A stretch of DNA of 64,000 bases. It comes from Escherichia coli. Lineage in GTDB: Bacteria > Pseudomonadota > Gammaproteobacteria > Enterobacterales > Enterobacteriaceae. Made by a program: the position numbers and the translations under genes. The notes beneath the pieces were generated by a model that made no database searches, was not told where the DNA came from, and saw only the letters and a program-made list of their open reading frames with translations. The stretch lies in NCBI RefSeq assembly GCF_030013595.1, contig NZ_CP122768.1, one strand, 5' to 3'. Position 1 is the first letter of the stretch. Each line of letters opens with the position of its first letter. Shown here one piece after another: positions 1-53,367 of the stretch.

Positions 1-115
1 TGTTCGGTTGCTGCAGTCATACACTCCTGCATTGTCCTGTGAACACTGTCTGCAATATCAACTGGCTCTCCGGAAACAAGAAAAACTGTCAGAACAAGCG
101 CAAATGCTGAATTCA
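1..115 (-). CDS. N-terminal part of a small secreted/membrane protein (YdfD-like by operon position); start at 115, continues beyond window start
   Basis: Reverse strand reads MNSAFALVLTVFLVSGEPVDIADSVHRTMQECMTAATE from an ATG overlapping the dicB stop (ATGA); identity inferred from remembered dicB-ydfD order. Confidence 0.45.
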
Positions 116-301
116 TTGTGTACATCCTTTTGGCATCAGACGTAAACGAGCCAGCATTGAAACAATGCATATTTTATTTAATAGCTCCCGTTCTTGTTTT
201 CTCTTGTTAATGGCATCTTCAGTAAATACAGGGTTACTGATAGTGACACCAATTTCAAAACAACCTTCAGACGTATTAACGTTTGGTAATAACGTTTTCA
301 T
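113..301 (-). CDS. dicB: Cell division inhibitor DicB (62 aa)
   Basis: Internal Met of the 113..406 ORF gives MKTLLPNVNTSEGCFEIGVTISNPVFTEDAINKRKQERELLNKICIVSMLARLRLMPKGCTQ, matching remembered DicB; lies downstream of DicF as expected. Confidence 0.8.
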   Translation of the reverse strand: MKTLLPNVNTSEGCFEIGVTISNPVFTEDAINKRKQERELLNKICIVSMLARLRLMPKGCTQ

Positions 302-470
302 TATCGCGTCCTCAACAATGAATTTTGTGATGCAGTGCCTGGTGCCTCCAGGTGACGTTAACCAGTTAACAATTAACGCCGGATACAGAGAATCCACCCA
401 TAACACTGTTTTTGGTTTTAACTGTTCCGCGTGCGCTTAGCCGCATTCACCGCATCACAAAATTCACTTT

Positions 471-528
471 AAAAACGGCGGCAGAGCAGTCACGGAGTAA
501 AACTGATACCGCCAAACGTCACCAGAAA
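471..528 (-). ncRNA. dicF: DicF small regulatory RNA
   Basis: Reverse complement of 471..528 is UUUCUGGUGACGUUUGGCGGUAUCAGUUUUACUCCGUGACUGCUCUGCCGCCGUUUUU, matching remembered DicF; GC stem plus U-run at 3' end; located between early ORFs and dicB. Confidence 0.75.
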
Positions 529-803
529 ATTGATAACAGAGGGCGTTGCAGCGGGGTTGTCACTTAAGCGTATGGTCAACCTGACAACTCGGTGTCCTCA
601 ACGGGGAAGGAATAACCCCGCCATACTTACCGCCGCGCCATTTCGCGGGTTGCCACAACCGGAAGCGCACGGTCGAATTAAATTTAACGACACCGTACAG
701 TGAGACGAACTTCGCCGTGCGCTTTCGTGTTGTGTGCCTGCTTTTAACCACGTCAGGCGAGGTGGTATCCTTCTTATCCCGAATAACCAAGAAGGAAATC
801 TAT

Positions 804-1004
804 ATGACTAAAGAAGAATTTGTCTCTTATATTTTTGATAAAAAGGTTGAAATGTATGCCGCTACTTACGGGTCCTGTAATCCTCTGAATAAACCAGAGG
901 GGAAAGATGATTTCGACAAAATTTACCGCTTCTTGGAGGACCGCTATATCAAAAGGTTAGAGGACGCAGGGATCAAATCCCCAGTGAAGTCACCATTGTC
1001 CTGA
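804..1004 (+). CDS. Hypothetical 66-aa protein, opposite orientation to the dicB operon
   Basis: ATG at 804 preceded by AAGGAA Shine-Dalgarno; product MTKEEFVSYIFDKKVEMYAATYGSCNPLNKPEGKDDFDKIYRFLEDRYIKRLEDAGIKSPVKSPLS; no homolog recognised. Confidence 0.3.
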   Translation: MTKEEFVSYIFDKKVEMYAATYGSCNPLNKPEGKDDFDKIYRFLEDRYIKRLEDAGIKSPVKSPLS

Positions 1005-1338
1005 GAACTTGCAGGACGTCATGATCGTAACTTCCATCCAAACCGCGACGGCAAATTGCTTCTCGTATTACCGGAAGCAGTTCGCTGGAAATCTCGGTGC
1101 ATATTTCACCTGATAATACGCCTGGCTCAAGTGAGAATATTGGTGAACTTACGGTCTTGGTCTCGACAGTTTCAGAGTCAGTGCCAACATTATAAAGCTC
1201 AACGAAAGCGGTCTTGATTTTCCGGGCCAGATCTTTTGCTGGCTCGCTTGCAATATCTTTCCCGATTTCTCGCAGCACAGAATGCAATGTATGAGCTGCT
1301 GTTTTCTGTACATCAGACGGTAAATCTTTAAATTCCAT
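973..1338 (-). CDS. Hypothetical prophage early-operon protein (YdfB/YdfC position)
   Basis: 125-aa ORF (MEFKDLPSDVQK... from second Met) in the leftward operon downstream of the ydfA-like ORF; start 1338 or 1350. Confidence 0.5.
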   Translation of the reverse strand: MEFKDLPSDVQKTAAHTLHSVLREIGKDIASEPAKDLARKIKTAFVELYNVGTDSETVETKTVSSPIFSLEPGVLSGEICTEISSELLPVIREAICRRGLDGSYDHDVLQVLRTMVTSLGI

Positions 1339-1349
1339 CGTCAGCCTCA

Positions 1350-1502
1350 TCAGTCAGTGTTTCTGGCTAACCAGCAACGCGCGCCAGATTCGGTTTTAAA
1401 CGTTTTGCTTTTGGTATACGTCATCGCGGTGAACGTGCCGTCCTGGTTGGGGAACACGCCACATACCAGAGATTCGCTGTTGCCAAGATCGATAGTATCC
1501 AT
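1350..1502 (-). CDS. Small protein YdfA-like (50 aa)
   Basis: Internal Met of ORF 1350..1556 gives MDTIDLGNSESLVCGVFPNQDGTFTAMTYTKSKTFKTESGARCWLARNTD; first gene of the operon leftward of dicA. Confidence 0.5.
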   Translation of the reverse strand: MDTIDLGNSESLVCGVFPNQDGTFTAMTYTKSKTFKTESGARCWLARNTD

Positions 1503-1582
1503 GCTGACCTCATTTCCCCTTAACGCCGGGGTAGCGGAACTGTTTGCTGAGAACACCGTGCGGTGTCTTGATGGAAAGTAAT

Positions 1583-1633
1583 TTAGAATAACCTAACATA
1601 AGAGGCAAGTGTTTTTTGTTAGATTAGTCTAAC
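1583..1633. promoter_or_regulatory. Two palindromic operator-like sites (TTAG-N6-CTAA; GTTAGA-N4-TCTAAC) in the dicB-operon promoter region
   Basis: TTAGAATAACCTAA at 1583..1596 and GTTAGATTAGTCTAAC at 1618..1633, between dicA stop and the leftward operon start. Confidence 0.5.
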
Positions 1634-1670
1634 AAAAAGAGTGGGCGCAACTAATCACTTGAAAAGAATG

Positions 1671-2078
1671 TTATTTTATTGATTTATTTTTACGCGCTTT
1701 AAGCATTTCTTCGAAGAGTTTGTTGAAGTTTTCTACTCTTGCGCGCATTTCAGACAGCAAGGCTTCCTGCTCGGAAGATGGAAGAGCATCGAATAATTCG
1801 ATCAATTCTTTGTGGTTGGGAGTTAGCTCTGTTTCCACATGAAGTTCTTGTGCCGGCACTGGTGCCTTGTCTTCGTCACCAAACATTAGCCATGTAGGTG
1901 AGCACTTCAGAGCATCCGCTAAAGCAAACAATCGTTTTCCGACTGGCTGGGTTTCGTCTCTTTCCCATTGTGAAATTGTGACGTGAGCAACCCCAGCGAG
2001 GCGCGCAGCTTCTCGTTGTGTTAAGCGTAATTCTTTTCGTCGCGCCAGAACTCGCTGGCCTAGGGTTCTTGTATCCAT
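1671..2078 (-). CDS. dicA: Repressor DicA (HTH, XRE family, 135 aa)
   Basis: Full-length similarity to remembered DicA (..TISQWERDETQPVGKRLFALADALKCSPTWLMFGDEDK.. ..MRARVENFNKLFEEMLKARKN..); divergent from a Cro-like gene. Confidence 0.85.
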   Translation of the reverse strand: MDTRTLGQRVLARRKELRLTQREAARLAGVAHVTISQWERDETQPVGKRLFALADALKCSPTWLMFGDEDKAPVPAQELHVETELTPNHKELIELFDALPSSEQEALLSEMRARVENFNKLFEEMLKARKNKSIK

Positions 2079-2144: not shown

Positions 2145-2158
2145 AATAGGAGGCTTTG

Positions 2159-2386
2159 ATGCTTAAAGCTGACGCAATTACTTTTTTTGGCAGCAAAACA
2201 AAGCTTGCCAATGCCGCAGGAGTGAGACTGGCAAGTGTTGCTGCTTGGGGGATACTGGTTCCTGAAGGTCGCGCGATGCGTCTACAGGAGGCATCTGGCG
2301 GGGAGCTTCAGTATGATCCCAAAGTTTATGACGAATATCGTAAGACGAAGCGGGCGGGGCGGTTGAACAATGAAAATCACTCCTGA
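2159..2386 (+). CDS. dicC: Cro-like regulator DicC
   Basis: ATG 6 nt after AGGAGG; 75 aa (MLKADAITFFGSKTKLANAAGVRLASVAAWG...); divergent from dicA. Confidence 0.7.
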   Translation: MLKADAITFFGSKTKLANAAGVRLASVAAWGILVPEGRAMRLQEASGGELQYDPKVYDEYRKTKRAGRLNNENHS

Positions 2387-4615: not shown

Positions 4616-6103
4616 GTGGACATTAGAGACTGGCTACCAGAATTTCAAGTTTCAGCAGAAACAGATCGGGACTTACAGACCTATTTTTTTAAGCTACCGG
4701 CGATAAAGGATATTATTGAAAGTAGGGCTTGGTTGGTTCTTGGAAGAAAAGGTACTGGTAAAACAGCCATTTATGAACACCTTAGAAGAGGAAAACCAGC
4801 CAATCTCAACGGGTTTTACTCAGTATGTCTAAATTTTAGTGACTATCCATGGCCAGCCCATCAACTTTACAAGGATGCAATGGCTGGAGAACTTTCCGCT
4901 TATCAAAAAAGTTGGATGTATCTTTTTTATATTAAGGCATTATCTAAACTTATTGAAATAAAAAATGATGCTGGAGAGACTTTAAACAAAGATCTAACGT
5001 GGGCACATAATTATATCAAAACTATCTTTGGTAGTCCCGACCCAACTCTTAGGGAGGTTTTGTTTTCAAAAATAACCAGATTAAAAACCATAAAAGGGCC
5101 CAGTGCTGGTCTTAATGAAGTATCATTGGACGCAGGTGAAATTTCGTTAGAGGAAGTTGCTGAGAATGCTCAGCTAAAGCAAAAGCTAAGAGCTAATGCT
5201 TTCACATTGCTTACGTATTTTGAAAAAATTTTTAAAGATAACATTGGTAATGAAAAAATAATTATCGCCCTTGACCAATTAGACGAAAACTGGCTAGAGG
5301 GGCAAATTGAAGAATATAGTAAGGTTTTAATAAATCTGCTAAATGTCTGTAGAAACATAGCATCTGATGAACGCCTCAATGATAAATTAAAAGTCATTCC
5401 CTTCCTACGAACGGATATTTATCATTCTTTGAAATTCAATGATAAAAACAAATTATTGCAAGATAGTGCTATCATAATCTCATGGAATGAAAATAATCTA
5501 AACGATATGTATTATGAGAGGATAAAGAAATACAAACCTAATGATCTCATATTAGATGACGAAAAGGACAGATCTGGGAAAGTATTTGAGGTTTCATTCG
5601 TTAGGCAGGGGACTCCTCCATTTAAATATATATGTCGCCGTTCTTTCTTTAGGCCTAGGGATATTATTGTCTACTTCAACAAAATTAGGGCATGTCATAA
5701 AAATAATGTCTCAGGTCTTTACACTTCCAATGAGCTTTATGAAGCTGACCGTGAAGCATCTATAAGTGTGTACAATGAGGTGATTGATGAATGGTCCAAC
5801 CAATTCCCTGAAATTGAGAACTTACTAACTGTTCTTCAAACTATCCAAGTAGAAACATTCGATTTTAATGATTTCTCCGAGAAGTGCCGTAATGAATTTG
5901 CAGGTATTTCTGATGGGGTGATACGTCAATATATCAACTTCCTGTTTGATAACTCACTTATCGGACAAAAAAAACAAGGTAGATGGGAATACGTAAGTAG
6001 TTTGCCTAACTTAAAAATTAATCTACAAAATGAGTTTAGGACACATCATGCTTTAAAATACAGGTTGCATTTAATAGAAAGCAGACCGAGCCAAAATATT
6101 TAG
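4616..6103 (+). CDS. AAA+/STAND-like P-loop NTPase (495 aa), AT-rich moron; candidate defence gene
   Basis: GTG start 6 nt after AAGAGG; Walker A GRKGTGKT (4742..4765); Walker B-like IIIALDQLDE (5258..5287); AT-rich codon usage unlike flanking phage genes. Confidence 0.8.
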   Translation: MDIRDWLPEFQVSAETDRDLQTYFFKLPAIKDIIESRAWLVLGRKGTGKTAIYEHLRRGKPANLNGFYSVCLNFSDYPWPAHQLYKDAMAGELSAYQKSWMYLFYIKALSKLIEIKNDAGETLNKDLTWAHNYIKTIFGSPDPTLREVLFSKITRLKTIKGPSAGLNEVSLDAGEISLEEVAENAQLKQKLRANAFTLLTYFEKIFKDNIGNEKIIIALDQLDENWLEGQIEEYSKVLINLLNVCRNIASDERLNDKLKVIPFLRTDIYHSLKFNDKNKLLQDSAIIISWNENNLNDMYYERIKKYKPNDLILDDEKDRSGKVFEVSFVRQGTPPFKYICRRSFFRPRDIIVYFNKIRACHKNNVSGLYTSNELYEADREASISVYNEVIDEWSNQFPEIENLLTVLQTIQVETFDFNDFSEKCRNEFAGISDGVIRQYINFLFDNSLIGQKKQGRWEYVSSLPNLKINLQNEFRTHHALKYRLHLIESRPSQNI

Positions 6104-6266
6104 CTTACATCCATCTCCATTAAGAAATCTTGCTATTGTTCTTATGGATCGTCTTTCTGACTGATTTCATATTGGCGAGGTAAAGGTAGTTAAGTAGAAT
6201 GGCTGCGGGTGCTTGAGGCTATCTGCCTCGGGCATGAACACCAAAGGCAGATAGAGAAAAGCCCCA

Positions 6267-8141
6267 GTTAACATTACGCGTCCTGCAAGACGCTTAACAT
6301 TAATCTGAGGCCAATTTCATGCTAGACACATGTAGGTTAGCCTCTTACGTGCCGAAAGGCAAGGAGAAGCAGGCTAGTGTTAACACCAAGCTGTAATGTC
6401 CCCTTTGAACCATTCTAAAATGTCCCCAGACAATTCTCTGGGGGATTTTTCATGATCAAAGAGACTGTTACGATGAGTCATAAGGAACTCCACCGACTTC
6501 AGATTATTCAGGAGTCAATTAATCGACATATTACTCAGGAACAAGCTGCGGCACGCATTGGCATTTCTATTCGGCAGGTTAAACGTCTGGTGCAACGGTA
6601 TAGAAATGAAGGGCCTTCTGGTCTGGTTTCCCACCGACGTGGAAAGCGTCCTAATAATTCCTTTTCTACTGAATTCAGAGCAACAGTAATTTCACTCCTC
6701 AAAGGCCGTTACGCTGATTTTGGACCTACGTTTGCGTGCGAAAAATTGCGCGAGATACACGGTTTATCTTTATCCGTTGAAACTCTCAGAAAGTGGATGA
6801 TAGAAGAGGGGTTATGGCGTGAACGCCGTCGTAAAATTGCCCGTATATATCAACGCCGCATGCGACGACCATCTTACGGTGAACTGATCCAGATTGATGG
6901 CTCACCTCATGACTGGTTTGAAAATCGAGGCCCCAGATGTACACTGATCGTTTTCATTGATGATGCCACCAGTGCGTTGATGGCGTTGCGTTTTGTGCCT
7001 GCTGAAACAACCCGGGCTTACATGGAAACCCTCCGGGGTTACCTTAATGATCATGGCGTACCGCTCGCTCTCTACTCTGATAGACACAGTATATTCAGGG
7101 TAAATAACCCAGAGCGGGAAGGTGAGCTGACCCAGTTCACTCGTGCGATAAAGACACTGGGCATCGAGCCAATCCATGCCAACAGCCCGCAGGCAAAAGG
7201 GCGGGTAGAGCGCGCCAATCAGACACTACAGGACAGGCTGGTCAAAGAAATGCGGCTTCAGAATATCAGTGATATTGAAACAGCAAATGCATGGTTGCCG
7301 ACCTTTATTGAAGCCTATAACAACCGGTTCGCTACGTCGCCTCGTACTACTGATAATGCTCATCTTGATGAGCACCATTCTGAAGAGGAACTGGGTTATA
7401 TCTTCAGCCTACAGGCGAAGCGCGTTCTGTCTAAAAATCTCACTTTCCAGTACAAAAGCAGTGCGTTTCAGGTACGCAGTGAGGGCCGGGGATATCGACT
7501 TAGGCATTCGGTTGTTACTGTATGCGAGAACTTTGACGGTGAAATTAACGTTCTGTATGACGGGAAAGCGCTGGGCTGGGAAAAGTATGTTGATGGCCCG
7601 GAGCCTATACCACTGGATGATGAAAAGAGTGTCCATGAACGAGTGGATAATGCCCGTATTGATTTACGCTCAAAATACTATGTTAAACCTAAAGCTGACC
7701 ATCCCTGGCTTACGCGCCGAACGCAAAGTCATCAGCAAGTTAAGCCCCCGAAGTTACCTAAAAAGAAGCCTGATCCCGATAAAAAAGATTGAAACCAAGA
7801 TCGATTCGGTTGAGTGCATATCCATTCATAGGGTAGATTCTTAAGTCGCGTTTCTGGTGTTCATTTTCGGGTGGTTTGTTACTTGTTTTACCGGGGATAT
7901 GCCAGAAACGCGCTGAGTCAGTCTGGGCGGTGCGCGTAATGAGGCGTTATGGTAAATAGCCTATGCTAATGTCCGCTAAGAGCAAGAAGCGGAAGTTGGC
8001 AGTTTTGTGGACTGTCCCCACAAAAGTGACTACAGAAATAGTTGCAATTCATAATTGATCATGGGTTGTCAGTTAAACTCGTGGCGATTTAAATAGACTA
8101 ATTGGGAGTGCGTCCATTACTTATATCTTGTAATGTTAACT
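6267..8141. mobile_element. Insertion sequence (single-ORF DDE/rve transposase; IS481 or ISNCY-like); boundaries approximate
   Basis: 446-aa transposase ORF; 12-bp inverted match AGTTAACATTAC at 6267..6278 and 8130..8141 proposed as termini; no clear target-site duplication. Confidence 0.45.
6452..7792 (+). CDS. Transposase with N-terminal HTH and integrase-core (DDE) domain
   Basis: 446 aa; HTH (AARIGISIRQVKRLV) and rve-like core (..IQIDGSPHDWF.. ..LYSDRHSIF..); basic lysine-rich C-terminus. Confidence 0.85.
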   Translation: MIKETVTMSHKELHRLQIIQESINRHITQEQAAARIGISIRQVKRLVQRYRNEGPSGLVSHRRGKRPNNSFSTEFRATVISLLKGRYADFGPTFACEKLREIHGLSLSVETLRKWMIEEGLWRERRRKIARIYQRRMRRPSYGELIQIDGSPHDWFENRGPRCTLIVFIDDATSALMALRFVPAETTRAYMETLRGYLNDHGVPLALYSDRHSIFRVNNPEREGELTQFTRAIKTLGIEPIHANSPQAKGRVERANQTLQDRLVKEMRLQNISDIETANAWLPTFIEAYNNRFATSPRTTDNAHLDEHHSEEELGYIFSLQAKRVLSKNLTFQYKSSAFQVRSEGRGYRLRHSVVTVCENFDGEINVLYDGKALGWEKYVDGPEPIPLDDEKSVHERVDNARIDLRSKYYVKPKADHPWLTRRTQSHQQVKPPKLPKKKPDPDKKD

Positions 8142-9620: not shown

Positions 9621-9691
9621 ACCAAAGCATGACATCTCTGTTTCGCACCGAAGGTGACACTTCTGCTTTGCGTTGACAGGAGAAGCAGGCT

Positions 9692-9847
9692 ATGAAGCAG
9701 CAAAAGGCGATGTTAATCGCCCTGATCGTCATCTGTTTAACCGTCATAGTGACGGCACTGGTAACGAGGAAAGACCTCTGCGAGGTACGAATCCGAACCG
9801 GCCAGACGGAGGTCGCTGTCTTCACAGCTTACGAACCTGAGGAGTAA
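9692..9847 (+). CDS. hokD: Hok-family type I toxin HokD (RelF), 51 aa
   Basis: Translation MKQQKAMLIALIVICLTVIVTALVTRKDLCEVRIRTGQTEVAVFTAYEPEE; below ORF-track size cut-off, found by reading. Confidence 0.8.
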   Translation: MKQQKAMLIALIVICLTVIVTALVTRKDLCEVRIRTGQTEVAVFTAYEPEE

Positions 9848-10063: not shown

Positions 10064-10315
10064 ATGATGAACATCGAAGAACTGCGTAAAATTTTTTGTG
10101 AAGATGGCCTCTATGCTGTGTGCGTTGAAAATGGAAATCTTGTTAGTCATTACCGCATTATGTGTTTGCGAAAGAATGGGGCTGCGTTAATTAATTTTGT
10201 GGATGGTCGAGTGACAGACAGATTTATCTTGCGCGAAGGTGAGTTTGTCACTTCATTACAGGCACTGAAAGAGATCGGAATAAAAGCAGGCTTTTCAGCT
10301 TTTGCAGAAGAATAA
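10064..10315 (+). CDS. rem: Rem-like small prophage protein (83 aa)
   Basis: 83-aa ORF MMNIEELRKIFCEDGLYAVCVENG... at the position of rem between hokD and ydfU. Confidence 0.55.
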   Translation: MMNIEELRKIFCEDGLYAVCVENGNLVSHYRIMCLRKNGAALINFVDGRVTDRFILREGEFVTSLQALKEIGIKAGFSAFAEE

Positions 10316-13111: not shown

Positions 13112-13411
13112 AAAAATTCCTTAATACTGATAACTTGGCGCACTATACACACGTTCCTGAAGAAAGCTATAGTTTTTTGATGGGGTTGAAGATGGCTGGA
13201 TGTCTAAAATAAACATTGCTTCATATGTTCAACTATGCGTTAATGATTGCGTCGGTTTGAAGAACAGACGATATACGAAGTAGTTTACTAAAGCAGTTCT
13301 CATTTCAGGTGTTATTCACTTATTCCTTCTTTGAGTCTCTCCAATTAAGTACGAAGTCGTTTCTGTTATGCAAACCATTTATGCCGAAAGGCTCAAGTTA
13401 AGGAATGTAGA

Positions 13412-13627
13412 ATGTCAAATAAAATGACTGGTTTAGTAAAATGGTTTAACGCTGATAAAGGTTTCGGCTTTATTTCTCCTGTTGATGGTAGTAAAGATGT
13501 GTTTGTGCATTTTTCTGCGATTCAGAATGATAATTATCGAACCTTATTTGAAGGTCAAAAGGTTACCTTCTCTATAGAGAGTGGTGCTAAAGGTCCTGCA
13601 GCAGCAAATGTCATCATTACTGATTAA
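13412..13627 (+). CDS. cspB: Cold shock protein CspB
   Basis: 71 aa [38 protein letters not shown]..., RNP motifs. Confidence 0.9.
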
Positions 13628-13917
13628 AATTCATCGCTCGTCTGTATACGATAACGAAGAAGGCTGATGCCTGAGTAGAGATACGGACAGAGTAGTGAAT
13701 ATTGGATTTCTTTAATAAAAATTAAGGAGGTCCAATACATGAAACAATGGTCAGCATATTTGGCAAAATCTTAATCAGGAAAAGTATGCTAACCATTGTG
13801 GTGAAGTGCAGGTTTGCTGCATGAATAGTTTTACAGCAGAAGCTAACTGCTGGCATGGCAAAACAAAGTGCGTAAGTGGATGACTCCCACAAAAAGCACC
13901 ACAATCTCAAACCCGCT

Positions 13918-15935: not shown

Positions 15936-16296
15936 GGTAATATTAAATCGGAACATTTACATCGCGGAATGTAAAATTTAAATAAAAAGGACTCTTCCAT
16001 GAGCCAAAATTCCTGAAATCTTAAGGGTAAGATAAAAGGTCTTAATCAGAATGACACGTTTTATTAATAAATAAAGCTATTCTTTCATTGCTGTGTTTTT
16101 CTTTACAAAAGTAATCCTTGCTATGGGTGGTTAATCATGCGTTAATGGTGTTCTGGTTTGTTACAAATTTATCTGAAGCAGTCATTGTTATAATTTTATT
16201 ATTTGTACCTCTTGAGATTTCCTTGTTGGTTTTTCTCTCTGATATTTTTTTCGGACCATTCTGCCCAAGGGCTAATTTCTTCAAAAGGTAATAATT

Positions 16297-16509
16297 ATGT
16301 CTAACAAAATGACTGGTTTAGTAAAATGGTTTAACCCTGAAAAAGGTTTTGGTTTCATCACGCCGAAAGATGGCAGCAAAGATGTGTTTGTCCATTTCTC
16401 AGCAATTCAGAGCAACGATTTCAAAACATTAACTGAGAATCAGGAAGTTGAATTTGGTATTGAGAACGGACCTAAAGGTCCTGCCGCTGTTCATGTAGTG
16501 GCGCTTTGA
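16297..16509 (+). CDS. cspI: Cold shock protein CspI
   Basis: 70 aa [43 protein letters not shown]... Confidence 0.9.
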
Positions 16510-16780
16510 GGTAGACAATATTACAAACCATATTCACTTTAGATGCCCGTGTTGTCATGGTTCCCAGTATAGAACATCATCTTTTGATGTTTCTGACATG
16601 AATCCTTTCGGGGCAAAATGTATCTTTTGTAAATCAATGATGATTACATTTGATAATATTTCACAATACTTAAATGCCAGCCGTCTGTCGTTGGATTTAA
16701 AAAAGTGAAAATGAAGGCTCCTTCGGGAGCTTTTTGGCTTGGTGTCTATTCGATGGATACTCACATACTACGGTAACATC

Positions 16781-41459: not shown

Positions 41460-42034
41460 TGGCATTCAGAATGAGTGAACAACCACGGACCATAAAAATT
41501 TATAATCTGCTGGCCGGAACTAATGAATTTATTGGTGAAGGTGATGCATATATTCCGCCTCATACAGGTCTGCCAGCAAACAGTACCGATATTGCACCGC
41601 CAGATATTCCGGCTGGCTTCGTGGCTGTTTTCAACAGTGATGAGTCATCGTGGCATCTCGTTGAAGATCATCGGGGTAAAATGGTTTATGACGTGGCTTC
41701 CGGCGACGCGTTATTTATTTCTGAACTCGGTCCGTTACCGGAAAATGTTACCTGGTTATCGCCGGAAGGGGAGTTTCAGAAGTGGAACGGTACAGTCTGG
41801 GTGAAGGATACGGAAGCAGAAAAACTGTTCCGGATCCGGGAGGCGGAAGAAACAAAAAACAGCCTGATGCAGGTAGCCAGTGAGCATATAGCGCCACTTC
41901 AGGATGCTGTAGATCTGGAAATCGCAACGGAGGAAGAAACCTCATTGCTGGAAGCCTGGAAAAAGTATCGGGTGTTGCTGAACCGTGTTGATACATCAAC
42001 TGCACAGGATATTGAATGGCCAGCACTGCCGTAG
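41459..42034 (+). CDS. tfa: Tail fibre assembly protein Tfa
   Basis: 191 aa [42 protein letters not shown]...; start overlaps stf stop. Confidence 0.85.
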
Positions 42035-52927: not shown

Positions 52928-53367
52928 GCTCCGTTTAACATTCATTGAGAAAACTGATGCTACTGTGTCAACGATCCGTTATCAGTGCAGGAAAATGCCT
53001 GTTAGCGTAAAAGCAAAACACAAATCTATCCATGCAAGCATTCACCGCCGGTTTACTGGCGGTTTTTTTTCGCCGTCATAAAAATCAGGCCCCTTGTACA
53101 CAGTTGTAACAAGGGGCCGGTTAGGTGAGGGATTATCTCCGTTCATTAGTCATCCCATTTGTGGCTGAAATACGCGGCCAGAAAACCAGAAAATAAAATT
53201 ATTCCCAGTACGGCCATAAAAACATTCATATTACCCAGCATTATTTGCCTCCGTTTATGGTGTGGTGTGTTTCCTCGCTTACCTTAATTTTCATCTCAAT
53301 GAGAAAGATATTAGCAGAGGTAACCTAAACGAAGGCTGAATTAAATTTTTATTGTGTTCGACTTAAA

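Follow-up and report, generated by a model that had tools for sequence, protein, structure and literature searches.

The window, a stretch of 64,000 nt of Escherichia coli DNA (contig NZ_CP122768.1), carries at its left edge the distal part of a dicBF operon on the minus strand. In the direction of transcription the operon end consists of an untranslated leader, the small RNA DicF, a spacer, the cell division inhibitor gene dicB, and the beginning of ydfD. Upstream of these lie two further small operon genes, a putative PL-type promoter, and a DicA-like immunity repressor gene facing a DicC/Cro-like regulator gene. A Qin-like lambdoid prophage takes up the window from position 1 to about 43500. 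The module is already known and ordinary: it is of the textbook kind and very common in E. coli prophages.

DicF and its terminator

An Rfam scan of the whole window returned a single DicF match (RF00039) at 476-527 on the minus strand. It covers the entire model (1-52 of 52) with 72.5 bits (gathering score 48); all consensus pairs are formed and no non-canonical pairs were flagged. By the K-12 annotation DicF is 53 nt long and occupies 476-528 (minus strand). Its 5' end therefore falls exactly on 528, the right-hand coordinate given in the preliminary description, which had reported DicF as present with its terminator and had proposed an Rfam search as the check. The report of DicF and its terminator was correct. 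The terminator stem pairs 507-513 with 477-483, and a U-tract follows at 471-475 (minus strand). In the minimum-energy fold (-16.6 kcal/mol) a 7-bp GGCGGUA/UGCCGCC stem, with an inner 5-bp stem, precedes GUUUUU. A simple consensus terminator scanner did not flag the DicF terminator because its rule admits loops of 3-8 nt, while both the fold and the Rfam structure contain the hairpin.

The RNA is identical to K-12 DicF at 52 of 53 positions. The sole difference, C53G, concerns the last base, which faces U15 at the bottom of the terminator stem. In 11 collected DicF copies the sequence is invariant save for this position, where both C and G occur, and the isolated phages Tritos and HannyBb share the G53 allele. 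DicF sits in the untranslated leader 5' of dicB, within a lambdoid prophage's early-left operon, and the precursor region is kept.

In K-12 the 3' region of DicF pairs with the ftsZ ribosome-binding site, as shown by compensatory mutations, and the 5' region pairs with xylR and pykA (PMC5069750). The repression targets besides ftsZ are xylR, pykA, and manX, and the K-12 RNA is known to bind Hfq and to be processed by RNase E as well as RNase III (PMC10448788). A duplex between DicF and the -60 to +30 region of K-12 ftsZ (the host's own ftsZ lies outside the window) was calculated with RNAduplex; its energy of -39.6 kcal/mol was equalled by 43 of 500 shuffles. Since the duplex is not clearly apart from the shuffles, the pairing claim rests on the identity of nucleotides 1-52 with the K-12 RNA whose ftsZ pairing had been validated by compensatory mutations (PMC5069750).

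DicB

The dicB gene (113-301, minus strand) is complete and encodes 62 aa. Its reading frame runs uninterrupted from the ATG at 301 to a TGA stop at 113-115, and a Shine-Dalgarno sequence (GAGGA, 309-313) is found 7 nt upstream of the ATG. The protein matches both Pfam PF05358 (136 bits, cut-off 27) and the NCBIfam model NF049927 'cell division inhibition protein DicB' (132.3 bits, cut-off 100) over their full length (1-62 of 62). Alignment to K-12 DicB gave 61 of 62 identical residues, the only difference being A61T. The preliminary description had called dicB intact and suggested this alignment; the start, ribosome-binding site, stop, and full-length domain matches agree with that claim, and no inactivating change was found. 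In RefSeq the protein is WP_000854560.1, the same as in BL21(DE3), strain C, and the pig isolate HCP5S3_I2. A61T, together with V23D in YdfD, is a common allele of the B and C strains.

Synonymous change exceeds non-synonymous change per site in all five dicB comparisons (dN/dS 0.15-0.86). Against diverged copies the ratio is 0.15-0.45 and the N-terminal half is strongly conserved; against a close O157 copy it is 0.86, on 11 differences.

K-12 DicB takes MinC to the septum and also blocks phages that inject their DNA via ManYZ (PMC10448788). The roles previously cited for DicF (ftsZ) and DicB (MinC) agree with the literature (PMC10448788, PMC5069750). The accompanying label of a host-division hijack module fits these division roles but is incomplete, as it leaves aside the exclusion of ManYZ-dependent phages by DicB and the repression of xylR, pykA, and manX by DicF.

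The third ORF is ydfD

The 5' part of a third ORF occupies 1-116 (minus strand); the window edge leaves 38 of its 63 codons. Its ATG at 116-114 overlaps the dicB TGA at 115-113 (ATGA), and a Shine-Dalgarno sequence, AAGGA, lies 9 nt upstream of the start. The overlap suggests that translation of this ORF is coupled to that of dicB. The 38 codons in the window translate to MNSAFALVLTVFLVSGEPVDIADSVHRTMQECMTAATE. In the preliminary description the ORF was rightly said to leave the window at the left edge, although its start was put at 115, one base off.

The 38 visible residues match Pfam DUF1482 (PF07358) with 45.5 bits over profile positions 1-35 of 57 (cut-off 25). Positions 1-116 are identical to the relative L001, and in relatives identical over this segment the ORF is annotated as the 63-aa 'lysis protein YdfD' (RefSeq WP_001083270.1). 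The full-length YdfD of a relative identical over the in-window part of the gene matches phrog_1092 with 121.5 bits. The gene is complete in strain C (100% identity over window positions 1-745) and in other relatives with 99.5-99.9% identity. Over the visible part 36 of 38 residues are identical to K-12 YdfD, the differences being V6A and V23D. Judged by these matches, the third ORF is ydfD, a known lysis gene and not an uncharacterised secreted protein. Its position in the operon, on which the preliminary description had relied, pointed to the right gene.

In the YdfD homologues compared, C32 and C45 are kept in eight of eight, including the most diverged, and the motif EQKIPG-C-P persists in all of them, down to about 40% identity. 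The V23D substitution of the present copy directly follows the hydrophobic segment. In 2016, Masuda and colleagues reportedly found that the C-terminal 42 residues of YdfD are still toxic without the hydrophobic N-terminus. YdfD causes rapid lysis, which is prevented by co-expressed DicB or SulA (PMC8835842). It is reported to bind and inhibit the cytoplasmic enzyme IspG and to be rescued by IspG or the product of this enzyme, a model that comes from a single study (PMC8835842).

Leader and spacer

The untranslated leader upstream of DicF (529-691, minus strand) is the 5' part of the 190-nt precursor and is conserved with K-12. Near-identity to K-12 begins about 160 nt upstream of dicF and covers this precursor. 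RNase III makes the 5' end of the 190-nt species and RNase E makes the 5' end of the 53-nt DicF (PMC10448788), while the DicF 3' end arises by Rho-independent termination or by RNase III acting on read-through RNA (PMC10448788, PMC5069750). In the window an RNase III site is predicted by homology near 665 and an RNase E site at the DicF 5' end. The fold of the 301-nt precursor region was not significant (z-score -1.58) and contained no clear long RNase III stem, so no cleavage stem was assigned.

The dicF-dicB spacer (302-475, minus strand), which is the dicB leader, is 99% identical to K-12. A hairpin, CCUGGAGGCACCAGG, is found at 338-352, just upstream of the dicB ribosome-binding site. The spacer and the first dicB codons (269-478, minus strand) also give a sub-threshold match to the Rfam family STnc100 (RF02076), with 34.5 bits against a gathering score of 47, over the whole model (1-206 of 206). 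At the same position the other dicF-dicB copies tested (six of six, K-12 among them) score 33-40 bits. The best-conserved piece of the match is the hairpin CCUGG-AGGCA-CCAGG. STnc100 has recently been linked to PasD prophage sRNAs (bioRxiv 10.64898/2026.05.13.724894). These scores allow a doubtful proposal, namely that the spacer of about 175 nt is a diverged structured RNA of the STnc100/PasD kind and forms a second RNA element of the module. Such an RNA would regulate dicB translation in cis or be processed separately as an sRNA. Nothing else in the analysis is even slightly new, and this lead is weak.

A diverged copy of the module in E. coli TUM2830 (L010, 1424-2712) has an antirepressor cassette inserted between dicF and dicB. 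The cassette contains a Rha-family gene with C4 antisense RNA and isrK (78 and 69 bits), and its insertion left a truncated dicB fragment in addition to a full dicB. The dicF-dicB spacer is thus an insertion point for immunity-type modules.

Upstream operon genes and the immunity region

Upstream of the leader the operon contains a variable cassette. Its 121-aa ORF of unassigned function (973-1338, minus strand; phrog_33007) stands where K-12 has ydfB and ydfC. A 66-aa ORF (804-1004, plus strand; hypothetical protein WP_000159335.1, phrog_34441), a candidate gene, lies on the strand opposite the operon transcript and overlaps the 121-aa ORF 3' end to 3' end. The cassette was detected in 399 of 5426 complete E. 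coli genomes. Identity is at least 99% in 397 of these 399 copies, which are too alike for a test of coding selection on the 66-aa ORF; by tblastn this ORF was found in only one phage record. In the O157 and Stx-phage copies the antisense place is taken by a 77-aa ORF that is not homologous to the 66-aa ORF.

The first gene of the operon is ydfA-like (1350-1502, minus strand; 50 aa, DUF1391, Pfam PF07151 with 92.7 bits). DNA identity between the surrounding region and K-12 dicA-3'/dicBp/ydfA is 82%. Alignment to the K-12 dicA-ydfA spacer points to a dicBp-like (PL-type) promoter with operators at 1580-1634 (minus strand). The predicted hexamers are TTGCCT (-35, 1603-1608) and TAAATT (-10, 1580-1585), separated by a 17-nt spacer.

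The immunity repressor gene (1671-2078, minus strand; 135 aa, HTH_3) matches the NCBIfam model NF007257 'transcriptional repressor DicA' with 224.7 bits (cut-off 101), and its product is only 57% identical to K-12 DicA. The divergent gene encodes a DicC/Cro-like regulator (2156-2386, plus strand; Pfam P22_Cro, 47.8 bits, cut-off 30.2) which is 86% identical to K-12 DicC. In a palindrome search of the whole 64 kb the perfect 18-bp palindrome TGTTAG-N6-CTAACA was found at two places only: one (2128-2145) in the divergent control region between the two genes (2079-2145), the other (1617-1634) at the putative promoter. Imperfect copies are found at 1581-1598 and 2079-2096. These palindromes are probably OL/OR-type operators of the DicA-like repressor, with an immunity specificity unlike that of K-12 DicA.

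The antirepressor gene rem (10064-10315, plus strand) was located by tblastn, with 83 of 83 residues identical to Rem of a collinear genome. In K-12, DicA represses dicBp, a PL-like promoter; Rem relieves this repression, as do spontaneous switching, urea, and heat, and deletion of dicA derepresses the promoter 22-fold (PMC10448788). Expression of the K-12 operon occurs in stationary phase; a subpopulation of cells also turns it on spontaneously, and urea and heat act as inducers (PMC10448788). By analogy, Rem is assumed to control the repressor of the present prophage as well, despite its divergence and the differing operators.

The prophage and its surroundings

The prophage keeps terminase, portal, capsid, tail, Q antiterminator, and lysis genes, and within it lie relBE, hokD, rem, cspB/cspF/cspI, and gnsB. 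Collinearity with the Qin-like prophage of HCP5S3_I2 extends over 47 kb of the window, minus one IS66 insertion; unlike in the closest genome, the region of the S49 prohead protease is uninterrupted and contains no IS66. In near-identical relatives rspB, int, xis, and the exonuclease gene lie left of the window. On the right side, inside the window, ydfK/ynfT is followed by the chromosomal ydfJ. The prophage occupies the rspB/ydfJ site, which is the site of Qin in K-12.

The Rfam scan also returned several other RNA families above threshold. A sok antitoxin match (111 bits) lies at 6207-6373 (plus strand), flanked by a gene for an Sll1717-family P-loop ATPase (4616-6103) and by a transposase ORF of the ISEsa1 type (6452-7792), with no obvious hok ORF beside it. 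It may be a remnant of a hok/sok locus truncated by the IS element. No Rfam sok match was found at the annotated hokD (about 9691-9846). Thermoregulator leaders of the cspA type are present at 13251-13643 and 16152-16536 (plus strand), at the prophage genes cspB and cspI. An IS009 match (41802-42000, plus strand) is located inside the tail-fibre gene, and an STnc560 match (52939-53152, plus strand) in the chromosomal part beyond the prophage.

Distribution

Window positions 1-745 align to K-12 Qin (NC_000913.3, 1649162-1649909) with 96.1% identity overall. Within the core, which begins some 160 nt upstream of dicF and reaches the window edge, identity is about 99%. Because the promoter-proximal cassette differs from K-12 (ydfB, ydfC), what is conserved and widely shared is the leader-dicF-dicB-ydfD block.

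The 745-bp block was found in 3777 of 5426 complete E. coli genomes (about 70%), presence being defined as at least 80% of the block. The median is two matching places per genome and the maximum is ten. The block also occurs in 59 phage records, including Stx-converting phages and the genomes of Tritos, mEp460_ev081, and HannyBb. In Tritos and HannyBb the gene order dicF-dicB-ydfD-exonuclease-xis-int was confirmed.

Proposed mechanism and alternative explanations

The stretch is very probably the distal dicBF operon of a Qin-like lambdoid prophage at rspB/ydfJ, with intact DicF and DicB, the start of ydfD, and a mechanism like that of K-12. The sequence contradicts nothing in this reading. The identity, completeness, and context of the parts are directly observed. 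The mechanism outlined below would apply by analogy, since each step is taken from the literature on the near-identical K-12 copy.

The DicA-like repressor, bound to the palindromic operators, would keep the PL-type promoter (about 1580-1608) shut. Once repression is lifted by Rem, spontaneous switching, or stress, a polycistronic minus-strand RNA would be made in the order ydfA-like gene, 121-aa ORF, long leader, dicF, dicB, ydfD. RNase III and RNase E would excise DicF from the leader, and its 3' end would be formed by the intrinsic terminator or, on read-through transcripts, by RNase III. With Hfq, DicF would pair with the ftsZ ribosome-binding site and lower FtsZ synthesis, and would additionally repress xylR, pykA, and manX. 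DicB would be expressed from transcripts that continue past the terminator. DicB would then recruit MinC to the septum, where FtsZ rings would be broken up, and would also block the DNA entry of ManYZ-using phages. The ATGA overlap would couple ydfD translation to dicB. YdfD would cause division-dependent lysis, reportedly by inhibition of IspG, and would be held back for as long as DicB blocks division.

It is possible, but rather unlikely, that a benefit to the lysogen is the main reason why the module is retained. Division inhibition would then be a side effect of over-expression; DicB would serve in superinfection exclusion through the ManYZ block, and DicF would retune sugar metabolism. 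Such a benefit is in line with the ManYZ-dependent phage protection that DicB gives and with DicF repressing pykA, xylR, and manX (PMC10448788). It also agrees with the abundance of the block in E. coli genomes, often in several copies, and its persistence in degraded prophages such as K-12 Qin. However, complete phages that have been isolated carry the module equally, and there it sits in the early-left operon beside the exonuclease gene, xis, and int. This location fits a role in lytic development like that of lambda Kil, and the two roles are not exclusive.

A different function for YdfD, as a small exported protein with a cleavable signal peptide that acts in the periplasm or outside the cell, is quite improbable. 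The preliminary description had noted a signal-peptide-like N-terminus, and part of this stands: the hydrophobic core is only about 13 residues long (A4-G16), and V-S-G before E17 fits the -3/-1 rule. The invariant C32 and C45 could in addition indicate a disulfide. The n-region (MNS), however, has no positive charge. YdfD is a lysis protein whose reported target, IspG, is cytoplasmic, and the reported binding to IspG and rescue by this enzyme or its product (PMC8835842) argue against export. Earlier work, as cited in PMC8835842, also has the C-terminal domain alone retaining reduced killing activity. The designation as a small secreted protein is thus unsupported.

That the copy is a silent relic, intact in sequence yet permanently repressed or untranscribed and without current function, is very improbable: K-12 Qin is strongly repressed by DicA, as the effect of the dicA deletion illustrates (PMC10448788), and the antisense 66-aa ORF lies in the path of the transcript, but no inactivating change was found in DicF, dicB, the visible ydfD, the promoter hexamers, the operators, the repressor, or rem, the K-12 operon is switched on under the circumstances described above (PMC10448788), and the dN/dS of dicB is below one in all five comparisons.

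Beyond correct annotation the finding of a dicBF operon matters little. It provides exact coordinates for DicF, dicB, and the ydfD start and corrects the third gene to the lysis protein YdfD. It also places the module in a Qin-like prophage that is far more complete than the K-12 reference and has a different immunity specificity. The strain could serve for study of the module in a prophage which retains head, tail, lysis, and terminase genes, although the left arm of the prophage lies outside the window and there is an ISEsa1 copy in the early-right region.

Comparison with known systems

The closest studied system is the dicBF operon of Qin in K-12 MG1655 (dicF b1574, dicB b1575, ydfD b1576), which has the same gene order, spacing, and ATGA overlap. 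Qin lies at the same site beside rspB and shows the same layout of a DicA-type repressor, a divergent DicC/Cro-like gene, and ydfA. Beyond about 160 nt upstream of dicF, however, its mosaic differs from that of the window: ydfB and ydfC take the place of the 121-aa ORF and the antisense 66-aa ORF, and both the repressor (57% identical) and the operators are different. K-12 Qin has also lost the head, tail, lysis, and terminase genes that the present prophage retains.

The Qin-like prophages of B/BL21(DE3), strain C, and HCP5S3_I2 are 99.5-100% identical over the module and the upstream operon, with identical DicB (WP_000854560.1) and YdfD (WP_001083270.1). In strains B and C an IS3-associated deletion removed late genes, whereas the window carries far more of the prophage. 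Phages Tritos, mEp460_ev081, and HannyBb have the 745-bp block at 96-99% identity. In Tritos and HannyBb the run from dicF to int is downstream of the repressor gene, as in the relatives of the window. The immunity regions and promoter-proximal small genes of the module-carrying phages differ; Tritos, like K-12, has a ydfABC-like trio.

Lambda Kil is likewise a small product of a PL-type early-left operon, and it blocks FtsZ ring assembly on prophage induction. Kil is a protein that acts on FtsZ with ZipA and has no sequence relationship to the dicF/dicB module, whereas the module uses an antisense sRNA and a protein that recruits MinC.
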